Source: an uncultured archaeon (GTDB lineage Archaea > Asgardarchaeota > Lokiarchaeia > Sigyniarchaeales > SOKP01). Taken from it: a stretch of DNA of 14,660 bases. The notes below the pieces were generated by a model that was not told where the DNA came from, searched no databases, and was given only the letters and a program-made list of their open reading frames with translations. The DNA is taken from positions 1-14,660 of the forward strand of contig CAZGJX010000101.1 in the NCBI GenBank assembly GCA_964525635.1, written 5' to 3'. Positions 676-14,660 of the stretch are shown here, piece after piece. Each line of letters opens with the position of its first letter. Within the stretch, counting starts at the first letter, position 1. Position numbers and translations under genes: made by a program.

Positions 676-1324
676 ATGAGTATTTTAGACAATTTATTTA
701 GCCAATATATCTTTATTTTAAAGGAAATTTTATCTAAATTGTATATTGATCAACAAGTTGAGAATATTATTCTACAAATGGAAAAAGAATTTACAAAATT
801 AATAGATTCTGAATTAACCAAGAATGTTACTCTAAAGGATATTAATCAAAAAACACACATAGTAACACCCTGTTTTATGATAGCTCTTTATCGAGTTTTA
901 AATGGAATTCCCTCTATTACCGTTTCTTTAGAACTAATTAGTGATATTATGATGGATGTATTTTAAGAATTTGTTGGACCATTGGTAGAAATGCAAAAAA
1001 CAAGATTAAAAAATGCAAATGATAAATGGAATAAATATAAAGAACAGACTGTTTTTGGAACAAAAAGCACCTATAATTCATTTGATCCCATCTTTGTAAA
1101 AAACAATGAAACTATTCTTGAGTTTCATTTAAAAAAATGCATTTTCTATGATATATTCAAAGCTCATGAAGAAATTCATCTATCTCCAATATTATGCAAT
1201 TATGATAATATCTTTGGCTGATGCTGTAGATGAATGGATCTGCTTTAAAAGGCCTAAAACAATTGCTGATGGAGAGGATTATTGTCAATTTATATATTCC
1301 CCCAAAAAAAGTCAATATAAATGA
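676..1324 (+). pseudogene. Disrupted L-2-amino-thiazoline-4-carboxylic acid hydrolase-like family gene
   Basis: ORFs 676-966 and 982-1221 share one frame, split by TAA at 964-966 (MMDVF*EFVGPLVEMQ). One extra G at 1216/1217 then shifts the frame. The continuation 1217-1324 reads ADAVDEWICFKRPKTIADGEDYCQFIYSPKKSQYK*. The family pattern C-x-F...LC-x-x-D...R-x-x-TIA-x-G-x-x-x-C-x-F is complete across the three pieces. Confidence 0.8.
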
Positions 1325-1385: not shown

Positions 1386-1767
1386 CTAGCTTCCTATTTT
1401 TCTCATTTTTCCACATCTTAAACAGATGATAAAGTGTTTTATGGCTTAAAATGAAAGTATTTTAAGCTGTCATACCCTCATCTGCACTTCTGGTCTGGCG
1501 TGTTTCTAATTGAGCCTTATCATATCCACACTTAGGACATTTAAAATCTTTTATTGTACTTTTTAAATTCTCATCTTTCCATTGTAGTATTTCTTTTGCA
1601 TTAATTATTTCTTCTCTATAAGAATGGGTTATTTTTGTTGATAATTTATAAGCCTCTGATTTTTTTTCAGAAAATATTTTTGAAGCACCACATTTACATT
1701 TAAATATTTTCTTACCATCCTGAGTTGAGGGAACCATAAGACCTCCACATTGATCACAAAATTCCAA
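1386..1767 (-). CDS. tfs: Transcription factor S (TFS/RpoM; TFIIS/RPB9-like), two exons: 1767-1469 and 1437-1386, 116 aa when spliced
   Basis: N-terminal MEFCDQCGGLM...CKCG zinc ribbon and C-terminal CPKCG...QTRSADEGMT. After removal of 31 nt it continues HFIICLRCGKMRKIGS* (TAG at 1388-1386), supplying the last CxxC. TTG start with GGTGAT upstream. Confidence 0.93.
1438..1468 (-). other. 31-nt bulge-helix-bulge (BHB) intron in the tfs mRNA (predicted)
   Basis: Minus strand reads UAUG-ACA-GCUUAAAAU-ACUUUC-AUUUUAAGC-CAUA-AAA-CAC. This gives a 4-bp central helix UAUG/CAUA, two 3-nt bulges (ACA, AAA) on opposite strands and a perfect 9-bp intron stem. Cuts at AC^A and AA^A rejoin to ATG ACA CAC TTT in frame. 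Confidence 0.88.
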
Positions 1768-2849: not shown

Positions 2850-3182
2850 TTAATAATAAGAGAATTCAAAAGTTTTTCTTTCTTTTATGGAATATCCATC
2901 TTTTTCTTCATTTTTATATAGAATTGGACGGAAAGTTTCTTTTAGATTTTTTTTAAATAAAAATTTCTTTATTCTAAGTTTAATTGCTCTTTTTGATAAA
3001 TCAGCTGACATGATAATTTCTAATTCATTCCCATTTCTAGCAATTTCTAAATGAGGTAGATGTTCTTTTAAAAATCGAATTAAATCATCAACATGTTGAT
3101 CATTTTTAAAACTGAGATCTTTTGCCTCTACGTAAATAGTTTTGGTAATTTTTGGTTTTTTAGATGGTTTTTTTTTTGCCAT
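2850..3182 (-). CDS. rpl22e: Eukaryote-type large-subunit ribosomal protein eL22 (L22e)
   Basis: 110 aa, basic. SKRAIKLRIKKFLFKKNLKETFRPI...KDGYSIK resembles the eL22 signature SKRYLKYLTKKYLKKxxLRDxxRVVA..K..YELR. FLKE occurs in the preceding helix, and AAGTGAT lies upstream. Confidence 0.8.
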   Translation of the reverse strand: MAKKKPSKKPKITKTIYVEAKDLSFKNDQHVDDLIRFLKEHLPHLEIARNGNELEIIMSADLSKRAIKLRIKKFLFKKNLKETFRPILYKNEEKDGYSIKERKTFEFSYY

Positions 3183-3376: not shown

Positions 3377-4660
3377 GTGAATATTATGGTAGATTATATA
3401 GATTTAGATTATGAACCTGATGAAAATGATTTAATTGTTATGTATTATGTAGAAAAAGCTAGAGACTGTAAAGATTTTAAAAATGTTTGTATGGAGATTG
3501 CTAAAGAAAGTTCAATTGGTACATGGACAGAAATTGCGACTCTATCCGCTGAAATTGCCAGACGATTAAAACCTTCAATATTTTATATAGATGAGACCAA
3601 TGGAATTGTGAAGATTGCTTATACGAAAGATCTGTTTGAGGTAAATAACATTTCACAAATTTTAAGTGCTATAGCTGGAAATATATACGGTATGAAAACT
3701 TTAAATAATTTAAGATTGTTAGATGTTTCTTTTCCTAAAGATATTATAAAAGCTTATAAGGGACCTCAATTTGGAATTGAAGGAATAAGAAACTTAACAA
3801 AAATTGAAAATCGCCCTTTATTAGGAACAATAGTTAAACCAAAAGTAGGATTAAATGAAATGGAGCATGCTAATATATGTGCCCAAGCATGGAAGGGGGG
3901 CCTAGATATTGTTAAAGATGATGAAAATTTAACATCTATGATATTTAACAAGTTTGAACAAAGAATTGAAGAAACTCTTAATAAAAGGGATAAAATAGAA
4001 AATGAAACTGGAGAAAAAAAGATATATATGCCAAATATAACAGCACCTATGAGTATAATGAAAAATAGAGCGGACTTTGTCATTGAACATGGTGGCGAAT
4101 ATATTATGGTTGACATAATAACAGTGGGATTTTCAGCTTTGCAAGAACTAAGAGATTATTTAAATGACAAGAATGTTGTTATCCATGCCCACAGAGCGAT
4201 GCATGCTGCAATCACTAGAAATAATAAACATGGGATGACAATGTTAGCTTTAGCTAAATTAATGCGCCTCATTGGTATGGATCAGCTCCATACAGGAACA
4301 ATTGTTGGAAAAATGGAGGGAGGAAAAAGAGAAGTCTTAGAGATTAATCAAGTAATAACCAAAAAAAAAATAAAAGAGAATAACTTAACGTTAGTAAATC
4401 AAGATTGGGATTTTATAAAACCTACTTTACCTGTAGCATCAGGAGGATTGAGTCCTTTACATGTTCCGGAATTGATTGAATTACTAGGAAAAGATATGGT
4501 TTTTCAATTTGGTGGTGGTTGTCATGGTCATCCTAATGGTACAGAAGCAGGAGCTAAAGCTATAAGAGAAGCAGTTAATGGTGTTATAGAAGGATATTCA
4601 TTACAAGATTTAGCTAAATCAAATAAAGAATTAAAGCAAGCTATTGATAAATGGGCTTAA
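3377..4660 (+). CDS. rbcL: Ribulose-1,5-bisphosphate carboxylase, form III large subunit (probable start ATG 3386)
   Basis: ESSIGTWT, GTIVKPKVGL, GGLDIVKDDE (carbamylated Lys motif), HAHRAMH, HTGT-x-x-GKMEG (loop 6 Lys), PVASGGL and GGG-x-x-GHP are all present. About 425 aa, with no small subunit gene nearby. Confidence 0.96.
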   Translation: MNIMVDYIDLDYEPDENDLIVMYYVEKARDCKDFKNVCMEIAKESSIGTWTEIATLSAEIARRLKPSIFYIDETNGIVKIAYTKDLFEVNNISQILSAIAGNIYGMKTLNNLRLLDVSFPKDIIKAYKGPQFGIEGIRNLTKIENRPLLGTIVKPKVGLNEMEHANICAQAWKGGLDIVKDDENLTSMIFNKFEQRIEETLNKRDKIENETGEKKIYMPNITAPMSIMKNRADFVIEHGGEYIMVDIITVGFSALQELRDYLNDKNVVIHAHRAMHAAITRNNKHGMTMLALAKLMRLIGMDQLHTGTIVGKMEGGKREVLEINQVITKKKIKENNLTLVNQDWDFIKPTLPVASGGLSPLHVPELIELLGKDMVFQFGGGCHGHPNGTEAGAKAIREAVNGVIEGYSLQDLAKSNKELKQAIDKWA

Positions 4661-6182: not shown

Positions 6183-7142
6183 TCATTCTGCTAAATCTGG
6201 ATATAATTTTCTAAAATATGTAGGTACGTGACTTGAAGCAAATATTCCTGCTTCACTTATTAATCCATCGATATATCTTCTACTTACTGTTTCGAAAGCA
6301 GGATTCATGATTCTAACATTTGCAGGGGATTTTTCCCATATTTCATGAGGATCACGCATTTCTATTTTTTCAAGAATACCAAATGATGTTTGAGGATTAT
6401 ATTTTAATAGAGGGGATGCTACATAAAACGGTACATGCTCTTCATGGGCAACTAATGCAAGTAATCGTGAACCAATTTTATTTAGTACTGTTCCTTCTGA
6501 GGTTATCGAATCGGCACCTATTAATATAAGATCAACTTCAAAATAATTTACGGCCCATCTCATAGCACTATCCACAACATGAATTACATCTATACCCGCA
6601 TTTTGTAATATCTTCACACTTTTTCTCCCTTGGAACAGAGGTCTAGTTTCTGTTGATATTACTTTAAAATTCTTTCCCTGCTTTATTGCTTCTATTAAAA
6701 TTGCATCAACGAAAGATGAATGACAATGTGTCATCACTATAAACTCATTTGCCATAGCAGTTTCAGGAATTCTCCTAGCACCAAATTCAGCTATTTTCTT
6801 TCGTGCCTTATCAATCATATTTTGATATTCTTCTTTATATTTTAAGATAAGTTCAAGAATTTTACCGCATTCTATCAAATCAATATTTTTTTCTAATTTT
6901 TTAATAATATAATTCAAACCATTCCTCATGGTCGGTTCTGTTTCTCTTGTTTTGAAAAGAATATCTCTAGCTTCATTCAATTTACCAAACCAATCATCAG
7001 GACATTGGCACTCCTTTTCCATTTGATGAGCATAATCACTTAGAAATTGTATCGCAGATAAAGCTACATTTGTAGCACCTTGAATTTCTAAAGATTTGAT
7101 TTTTTTTGCATTCTTATTTAATTCTTCCATAGATATACACAC
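6183..7142 (-). CDS. Ribose-1,5-bisphosphate isomerase (eIF2B/IF-2B family; probable start ATG 7130)
   Basis: EIQGA, MTHCHSS (catalytic Cys), TETRP-x-x-QG, GADSIT (catalytic Asp), NKIGS and NPAFE motifs. RuBisCO lies 1.5 kb away. Confidence 0.85.
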   Translation of the reverse strand: MCISMEELNKNAKKIKSLEIQGATNVALSAIQFLSDYAHQMEKECQCPDDWFGKLNEARDILFKTRETEPTMRNGLNYIIKKLEKNIDLIECGKILELILKYKEEYQNMIDKARKKIAEFGARRIPETAMANEFIVMTHCHSSFVDAILIEAIKQGKNFKVISTETRPLFQGRKSVKILQNAGIDVIHVVDSAMRWAVNYFEVDLILIGADSITSEGTVLNKIGSRLLALVAHEEHVPFYVASPLLKYNPQTSFGILEKIEMRDPHEIWEKSPANVRIMNPAFETVSRRYIDGLISEAGIFASSHVPTYFRKLYPDLAE

Positions 7143-9928: not shown

Positions 9929-10105
9929 TTATTCTCCCCAATCTTCTTCTGTCATTTCAGCAACTTCAGCAGTAGCTATATCGTTTTTTATTTCAGTAAT
10001 TTCTAAATCGACTCCACAATCAGGGCAAGGTGTAACTTCACCGACAATTGTACCCTCATCTAAATCAAATTCGAAATAACATGACGGACATTCACATTTT
10101 ACCAT
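9929..10105 (-). CDS. lysW: Amino-group carrier protein LysW (58 aa)
   Basis: CPSC...CPDCG zinc ribbon, acidic, ending in EEDWGE. The GTG at 10117 falls inside an AGTGAT SD-like site, so ATG 10105 is the preferred start. Confidence 0.93.
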   Translation of the reverse strand: MVKCECPSCYFEFDLDEGTIVGEVTPCPDCGVDLEITEIKNDIATAEVAEMTEEDWGE

Positions 10106-10258
10106 TTTAATAATCACTTCTATCTTTTAAAAATCTAATTAGAATACCTAGAGATATACACGATTCAAAATAAAATTTTTGATTATTAATAAATCAAATT
10201 AGTAGATAAATAAATATCCATAAAATTTTTAAGACTAATTATCATAGTAACGAGATAT

Positions 10259-13697: not shown

Positions 13698-14660
13698 TTA
13701 CCTCCTTAATTGCCTCATTTGAATGCGTTTTTTTATATCTTTTGTACGATTTGAAGACTCTTCTCTTATTTTTGTACCAACATAATGTAAGAAAACATCT
13801 TCCAAGGTGGGTTGATGCATATTTATGTTTTTTACACTCATAGATTGTTGATCGATTTTTTGCATAATCAAAGGAAGCTGTTTACCTCCATTTTCACAAG
13901 AAATCGAGATTTTTTGACTATTTTCGTTATGTTCCTCTACATATTCTCCTTTTTTAATTCTAAATATTGTTTCTCTTATTCCATCAGGAATCTCTTCTAA
14001 ATTACCATCATCGAACATATTAGCTATCCTTTTTTTCATTTCTATTGAAGCATTATGAAACATTTGTTGAGACATAGGAAAGCGTTTCCAACCGTCCAAT
14101 AATTTCTTAGGATCTGACATCATTTCTTGCATTCTTGCTTTAATAAACTCTGGATTAATATTCGGCATATTGGCTGGGAGATTTAATGGAATTTCTATTT
14201 CATTTTCCTTAGAACTTCCTAAGGACACATTAATTATTCCCGGTATTTCTTTTATTTGAGATATTACTGTTGTAAATTGTGAAATATCCTCTATTTTGGA
14301 AAATTCTATCTCAATGACATCCCCAGATAATTGCTTCTTGAGGTTCTCAGAAGTATCTAACGCAATTATTTTTCCATGATCCATAATACAAATTCTATCT
14401 GCAAGTTCATCTGCTTCTTCCATATAATGTGTTGTAATGAGAATTGTGATTTTAGAATCGCCTTTATTTAATTCTTTAATTTTCTCCCAGATCTTTCTAC
14501 GAGTTTGAGGATCCAATCCTAAAGTGGGTTCATCTAAAAATAATACTTTAGGTTCATGTAAAAGACCTCTTGCTATTTCTAATCTTCTTTTCATACCTCC
14601 AGAATAATTCCTTACATAAACATCTGCTTTATCTTCAAGATCCACTAATTTTAAAACTTC
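13698..14660 (-). CDS. ABC exporter ATP-binding subunit (DrrA-like), 5'-truncated by the window edge
   Basis: Signature YSGGMKRRLEIA, Walker B LFLDEPT-x-GLDP, H-loop TTHYMEEA and C-terminal PTLEDVFL. The frame stays open to 14660 (EVLKLVD...). Confidence 0.95.
   Translation of the reverse strand, partial: EVLKLVDLEDKADVYVRNYSGGMKRRLEIARGLLHEPKVLFLDEPTLGLDPQTRRKIWEKIKELNKGDSKITILITTHYMEEADELADRICIMDHGKIIALDTSENLKKQLSGDVIEIEFSKIEDISQFTTVISQIKEIPGIINVSLGSSKENEIEIPLNLPANMPNINPEFIKARMQEMMSDPKKLLDGWKRFPMSQQMFHNASIEMKKRIANMFDDGNLEEIPDGIRETIFRIKKGEYVEEHNENSQKISISCENGGKQLPLIMQKIDQQSMSVKNINMHQPTLEDVFLHYVGTKIREESSNRTKDIKKRIQMRQLRR

Follow-up and report, generated by a model that had tools for sequence, protein, structure and literature searches.

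The stretch of DNA analysed here, called the window, is 14,660 nucleotides long and comes from an uncultured archaeon of the Lokiarchaeia, with named relatives mostly in the Promethearchaeota. Its minus strand carries an Rpa12-like paralogue of tfs that is broken by a short insert. Exon 1 (1469–1767) starts with a TTG codon and encodes the N-ribbon, the linker and the first half of the C-ribbon, including the acidic pair D96-E97 (1482–1477). It is followed by a predicted 31-nt bulge-helix-bulge (BHB) mini-intron (1438–1468), whose 3-nt bulges would each be cut after the second base, and by exon 2 (1386–1437), which supplies Cys105 (1424–1422), Cys108 (1415–1413) and the stop codon TAG (1388–1386). 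Within the insert there is a TAA at codon 102 of the exon-1 frame (1462–1464) and a second TAA in the exon-2 frame (1446–1448); because both frames carry a stop, neither a single readthrough nor a single frameshift can bypass the insert. A preliminary description of this DNA had reported the insert, its length of other than a multiple of three and the two stops, and had argued that no single event bypasses it; both points hold in this genome. An assembly error behind the 31-nt length was considered and rejected, as an independent Logan contig is identical to the window across the gene, over all 382 nt.

Without splicing, the minus-strand reading frame (1767–1462) encodes 101 amino acids and retains D96/E97 and Cys 4, 7, 24, 26, 77 and 80. 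Removal of 1468–1438 gives a product of 116 amino acids that gains Cys105 and Cys108 and has two Cys4 ribbons and the DE hairpin, which the unspliced form does not. Translation thus bears out the earlier description of an unspliced product that keeps the N-terminal ribbon and the DE pair and lacks the last two Cys ligands. The 101-aa reading frame matches Rpb9-type and TFIIS-type ribbons, and the TFIIS-type match ends at profile position 26 of 39. In the structural model the return strand of the acidic hairpin spans residues 99–105, and the intron interrupts it after two residues. Judged from this model, the unspliced product, minus two Cys, most of the return strand and the last strand, cannot fold the C-ribbon; its DE pair would lie on an unfolded tail and could not be presented. 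Database entries annotated as a 101-aa ‘truncated TFS’ are mis-called two-exon genes.

Archaeal TFS1 has a number of relatives, among them Rpa12 (A12.2), C11, Rpb9, TFS2 and TFS4 (PMC5715097). The spliced product resembles TFS1 and these relatives in its two Cys4 ribbons and acidic pair, but unlike canonical TFS1 it is a second paralogue that falls just under the TFS_arch cut-off, has an Rpa12-like ADEG motif and has only a putative role in transcript cleavage. Against TFS_arch (TIGR01384), the score of an orthologue that has no intron is 62.9 bits, marginally below the cut-off of 64.75. The earlier suggestion that the genome be searched for an intact tfs paralogue was followed, and a canonical tfs was found on another contig (C135) with 76.1 bits, above the same cut-off; canonical tfs matches are present in 109 of 135 genomes of the family. 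Among solved structures, the best sequence matches of the window paralogue are to Rpa12, and a fold search with the TFS-like model finds Rpb9, A12 and C11 equally well and so permits no ranking. The paralogue and its orthologues have the motif ADEG, as has eukaryotic Rpa12, and the canonical tfs has ADEP. As far as the sequences go, an Rpa12-like paralogue with ADEG is possibly relevant to the origin of A12.2.

Several other genes of the window and genome should be mentioned. An L22e-like ribosomal protein gene (2850–3182, minus strand; Pfam E value 1e-4, just under the cut-off) lies on the same strand as citG and the tfs paralogue and upstream of both. A 62-aa Cys-rich reading frame with an acidic WGE tail (9929–10117, minus strand) resembles the LysW amino-group carrier, and an ABC ATPase gene (13698–14660, minus strand) has a long Met/Pro-rich insertion before the C-terminal domain. 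Elsewhere in the genome, contig C54 has an array of about two dozen tRNA genes, which may belong to a mobile element, and on contig C50 ARAGORN predicts a tRNA-Sec, consistent with selenocysteine use in Lokiarchaeia.

Structure and predicted splicing of the insert

The insert and its flanks show canonical BHB geometry on the minus strand, with four of four central pairs Watson–Crick, a 9-bp inner stem and an outer helix of eight pairs. The exon strand of the 4-bp central helix (1471–1474) pairs with the intron strand (1443–1440), and at the variable pair of this helix seven alleles have changed on both sides. Bulge 1 (1468–1470) contains the predicted 5′ splice site (1469/1468) and bulge 2 (1437–1439) the predicted 3′ splice site (1438/1437). 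The intron hairpin (1444–1467) has a 9-bp stem and a loop of 6 nt, where all other alleles have 5 nt. The outer exon–exon helix (1428–1482) is formed by 1482–1475 with 1436 and 1434–1428.

Comparison of 19 distinct alleles provides evidence that the structure is maintained. Across these alleles 97.5% of cells pair, relative to 32–56% in slid-register controls, and four pairs, or 20 cells, have changed on both sides. None of 500 shuffles reaches the observed covariation, although the relatedness of the sequences inflates this test. The intron-bearing alleles show no relaxed constraint on exon 2: synonymous and non-synonymous codon differences per pair are 6.2 and 2.4, relative to 6.2 and 2.5 in intron-less alleles. 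A search limited to EndA and RtcB found that the genome encodes two EndA subunits and an RtcB, and the BHB motif of the insert is a generic EndA substrate.

The comparative evidence indicates that a genuine mRNA intron of the tRNA type interrupts this second member of the TFS family. Splicing is inferred because of the covariation together with the conservation of exon 2, and it is very likely that the gene needs splicing of the EndA/RtcB type for a complete C-terminal ribbon. The preliminary description had proposed that TFS activity depends on the tRNA-splicing machinery. This can be kept for the C-ribbon encoded by this gene; it is not supported for the TFS activity of the cell, because the genome has the intact canonical tfs on C135.

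Some further searches should be pointed out. The exact predicted spliced junction has no match in the JGI metagenomes, a DNA-dominated collection in which such a result is uninformative. An Rfam search of the locus gave no match, and a sigma-70 promoter scan, which uses a model unsuited to archaea, was at chance level. Database pairs with the same exon 1, one member full-length and the other truncated, were considered as spliced and unspliced forms and rejected, since their exon 2 sequences differ and the members are therefore separate alleles (one pair was checked in DNA, the other by protein).

Distribution of the intron and the early stop

In the family, 122 orthologous loci can be scored. 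The insert is absent to the base in 108 of these and an insert at the same site is present in 14. Removal of the window's insert at the predicted bulge cuts aligns the gene with the 108 intron-less orthologues without a gap. The 30-nt length is found in 18 of 19 distinct alleles; the 31 nt of the window results from a loop one base longer and is private to this genome. Three of the 13 GTDB alleles of 30 nt have only one in-frame stop. The intron is present in all four genomes of the window's genus, but its wider distribution is patchy and requires 11 parsimony steps, or one gain and 28 losses. In four intron-less sisters (G006, G021, G129 and G131) the outer helix is still strong, suggesting that there have been precise losses besides gains. 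A metagenome locus (L324, JGI 3300002052, positions ~800–830) has a cassette allele, of the kind described below, with a partly deleted intron hairpin and a frameshifted 151-aa product; this represents either an imprecise loss or an assembly artefact.

The gene is not alone in this respect. At least five housekeeping genes of the same genome are broken by 30–32-nt BHB inserts with early stops (C1:45743-45712, C178:567-596, C109:3095-3066, C6:7457-7486 and C76:5349-5379; L126–L130). The hosts are a thioredoxin, a ThiF-family, a nucleoside/AMP-phosphorylase-family, an oxidoreductase beta subunit and a catalase gene, and past the junction exon 2 carries the Pfam profile on. Four of these five mini-introns are also present in relatives, and at other mini-intron sites, too, the length drifts between 29 and 32 nt. 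There is one further candidate (C178:2541-2512; L131). BHB candidates were kept only if there was Pfam continuity, if exon 2 began at the junction or if relatives had the insert too; a de novo genome-wide scan yields no count, as it gave 20 candidates against 16–18 in decoys. Four inserts, comprising two short non-BHB inserts and misplaced boundaries at the oxidoreductase site, were left out of the comparison of inserts in relatives. With respect to the phosphorylase gene on C109, the window also has a RuBisCO-like gene (3377–4660, plus strand) and an eIF-2B-like gene of the ribose-bisphosphate isomerase type (6183–7142, minus strand), both judged from translation. Together the three genes would make up an AMP salvage pathway.

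Codon 102 of the tfs paralogue is a stop in all 19 alleles (17 TAA, one TGA and one TAG), and a product that reads through this stop is absent among 161 database homologues. All 32 introns with a length divisible by three, at six sites, have a stop in frame, relative to 23 and 7 in the other two frames and 0.64 expected from shuffles; the count is partly ascertained, since four of the six sites were selected for having a stop. Stem pairs beside the codon-102 stop that are not themselves part of a stop are equally invariant, and selection for the stop is therefore inseparable from conservation of the stem. The most plausible meaning of the invariant stop is a fail-safe, barring a 10-residue insertion from the catalytic hairpin, and not a switch. 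This fail-safe is shared by the other mini-introns and looks like a general feature of them.

A nuclease gene behind the intron in relatives

In relatives, a gene of 407–461 amino acids with two LAGLIDADG motifs is found directly behind intron-bearing alleles. Homologues of this nuclease, 48–88% identical, adjoin the intron-bearing allele at seven distinct loci, one of them as a 256-aa truncated copy, and at an eighth intron-bearing locus a decayed C-terminal piece of the nuclease is behind the allele. No LAGLIDADG gene was found beside intron-less alleles. Of these, 93 of 107 have DUF167 as their immediate neighbour, and at 10 of 13 intron-bearing loci extra DNA is present in the slot before DUF167. 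A trace of the nuclease is absent at 11 of 14 GTDB intron-bearing loci; in one genome (G054) a nuclease fragment is on another contig. The predicted fold of the nuclease has a pLDDT of 48 and was left out of the analysis. An identity of this downstream gene as an integrase with an att site was considered and rejected, the gene being a LAGLIDADG gene. Related LAGLIDADG genes are found in 60 of 134 genomes of the family (L346–L373), many of them free-standing and of ~400 amino acids, and the window's own genome has one (C4:1875-2552). Away from the tfs paralogue, a 70%-identical copy is fused to a 210-aa N-terminal region (L376; P0164, 672 aa).

Intron-bearing alleles have exon 2 in common, but their exon 1 tracks the host. 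In two allele pairs, exon 1 differs by 3% and 5% from the nearest intron-less allele, and exon 2 by 29% in both. Pairs of intron-less alleles serve as the baseline, where the maximum in exon 2 is 12.5% for an exon 1 difference below 5% and 21% for one of 5–10%. In relatives, a recombination break with a co-converted flank at the intron is shown by these allele sequences. At four loci a second, displaced copy of exon 2 is behind the nuclease. The displaced exon 2 of one of these (L342) starts with a 6-base repeat of the end of exon 1 and is of host type, differing by 6% from intron-less alleles and by 25% from the exon 2 of the cassette. From the placement of the nuclease, the recombination break and the displaced exon 2, the unit in relatives consists of the intron, a spare gene end and the nuclease, inserted at the junction.

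The origin of exon 2 also affects how the outer helix is to be looked at. The exon–exon duplex averages −12.9 kcal/mol in intron-bearing and −6.0 kcal/mol in intron-less alleles, a difference inflated by shared descent of the cassette exon. At pairing-capable synonymous sites there is an enrichment of C, and none is seen at the distal Cys codon. The stronger helix can partly be the result of hitch-hiking on the exon 2 of the cassette.

Beside the window's own allele, no nuclease gene, nuclease remnant or displaced exon 2 was found. What lies between the tfs paralogue and DUF167, at the place taken in relatives by the LAGLIDADG gene, is a broken hydrolase-like gene (676–1324, plus strand) with an in-frame TAA at 964–966, a frame change near 1215 and a weak match to ATC_hydrolase; this is a probable pseudogene inserted between the two genes. 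The cassette origin of the window's allele is extrapolated from the shared site and the similarity of sequence, and the window would hold at most a relic.

Origin and significance of the mini-intron

The explanation we favour, and consider probable, is that the mini-intron of the window is a relic of a selfish homing-nuclease cassette and not a regulatory switch. A cassette of intron, replacement exon 2 and free-standing double-LAGLIDADG gene would enter the junction of an intron-less allele; the host's own exon 2 would be pushed behind the inserted DNA, and the spare exon 2 would restore the gene. The nuclease is predicted to cut the intron-less junction, and repair would copy the cassette. 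The presumed recognition site is interrupted in DNA by the intron, which would leave the cassette immune, and since the intron is predicted to be spliced out of the RNA the gene would work. Housekeeping EndA would cut both bulges and RtcB join the exons, probably without gene-specific control. In time the nuclease would decay or be replaced and the intron would stay, as in the window; this step is proposed because frameshifted, truncated and remnant copies of the nuclease are observed in relatives. Some introns would afterwards be lost precisely, as suggested by the strong outer helix that some intron-less sisters retain.

An alternative that accepts splicing, though an unlikely one, is an old neutral intron that arose by reverse splicing or copying of a tRNA intron and was often lost, with the nuclease a later passenger that uses the intron for immunity. 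Most intron-bearing genomes have no trace of the nuclease, the four sisters with a strong outer helix look as expected after precise loss, and in formal terms a single gain followed by 28 losses would do. However, alleles that join a near-identical exon 1 to a foreign exon 2, with the host's own exon 2 displaced, mark recent lateral gains, and the nucleases, 48–88% identical and all at a single site, suggest a long association. This alternative differs from the cassette explanation in the order of events only, and it equally leaves no switch. Another alternative is the on/off switch of the preliminary description, in which the truncated form could be inactive or inhibitory; in a wider version, tuned splicing efficiency would let the cell make either a 116-aa cleavage factor or a 101-aa protein, the latter possibly with its own function on RNA polymerase. 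The codon-102 stop kept in all alleles by three types of stop codon, the lack of a read-through product among the 161 homologues and retention of the intron throughout the window's genus are all as such a switch would have them. Nor need a truncated form be inert, as the jaw and lobe of the polymerase are docking sites for N-ribbons (PMC8448823), the N-domain and linker of C11 function alone (PMC8501072) and crenarchaeal TFS2 has no C-ribbon (PMC5715097). Nevertheless we regard the regulated switch as quite improbable. The frameshift is unconserved, with 18 of 19 alleles a multiple of three, 89% of orthologues have no intron, an intact canonical tfs is in the genome, the same design recurs in five unrelated housekeeping genes, the stop codon sits in a stem with equally invariant non-stop neighbours, and presence of the intron tracks a mobile cassette. 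Moreover, EndA is a housekeeping enzyme (PMC7714728), and no dedicated, inducible IRE1-like nuclease is known here from a search that covered EndA and RtcB. There is a slim chance that a cassette intron was domesticated as a splicing switch in this genus, such that the load on EndA/RtcB sets the ratio of a cleavage-competent Rpa12-like factor to an isoform of N-ribbon plus linker that acts on RNA polymerase in a way of its own, as the corresponding part of C11 does; if true, archaea would have a forerunner of regulated mRNA splicing that depends on a tRNA ligase.

Two other proposals dispense with splicing. It is highly improbable that the insert stays in the mRNA and that the gene is a pseudogene or encodes a naturally truncated protein like TFS2, the function being left to the canonical tfs. 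The intact paralogue, the annotation of the 101-aa product as a protein and the metagenome allele with a partly deleted insert and broken frame are compatible with it, but exon 2 keeps both Cys and the substitution pattern of intron-less alleles, compensatory changes preserve the central helix and stem, and a complete replacement exon 2 in the cassette would be pointless if splicing did not join it to exon 1. Translational hopping over the insert is scarcely credible. Bypass signals such as that of T4 gene 60 have a stop codon 5′ of a stable hairpin, and the insert resembles them in this; yet it is the 3-4-3 BHB register that is conserved across alleles and not matching take-off and landing codons.

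The cassette explanation can be compared with several known systems. The pre-mRNA of cbf5 in Crenarchaeota has a BHB intron of 16–44 nt, of lengths both divisible and not divisible by three, for which a role as a ‘negative regulator’ has been proposed and is still unshown (PMC2738675); cbf5 is the sole coding-region BHB case named in PMC7714728. Both are short BHB introns in a coding region near catalytic residues, with patchy distribution and precise losses. The intron described here differs in gene and phylum, in being one of many in its genome and in that its splicing is predicted, and in relatives it has a nuclease neighbour, which was not found for cbf5. In Pyrobaculum 16S rRNA, the LAGLIDADG nuclease of Pog.S1213 co-converts the hairpin intron Pog.S1205 (as described in PMC4496867). 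There too a BHB hairpin intron without a reading frame owes its spread to a LAGLIDADG nuclease encoded nearby, which cuts at the site lacking the intron; in the present case the cutting is a prediction. However, the Pog.S1213 nuclease lies in a second intron of an rRNA gene and the cassette nuclease is free-standing behind a protein gene, and unlike Pog.S1205, the cassette brings along a gene end that replaces and displaces that of the host. Phages show collaborative or trans homing, in which a free-standing nuclease such as mobE acts with a nuclease-less group I intron (PMC2988022, PMC2790892). The arrangement is alike in that a free-standing nuclease adjoins the intron that interrupts its target, here a predicted one; but the phage systems have self-splicing group I introns and nucleases other than LAGLIDADG, and here a 30-nt intron, predicted to be spliced by proteins, is found in an archaeal chromosome.

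The preliminary description had also drawn a parallel to HAC1 and XBP1 mRNAs, which are cut by IRE1 and joined by a tRNA ligase; IRE1 is stress-activated and the splicing induced (PMC6627864). What the tfs-paralogue intron would have in common with these is non-spliceosomal cutting and ligation with a tRNA ligase in the mRNA of a transcription factor. The likeness to frame-switch splicing does not extend further, as the enzyme predicted here is the housekeeping EndA, the frame-changing length is not conserved and most orthologues are intron-less.

A selfish and testable account thus replaces a regulatory one. In the literature searched, BHB introns within archaeal coding regions are on record for cbf5 only, with no known route of spread; a limited search found no paper on coding-region BHB introns or on such cassettes in Asgard archaea. 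A specific nuclease and its predicted target are named and are open to direct assay. All stages of the cycle are seen at this single site, in the lineage of archaea nearest to eukaryotes: the empty allele, the intact cassette with a displaced host exon, the decayed nuclease, the lone intron and probable precise loss.
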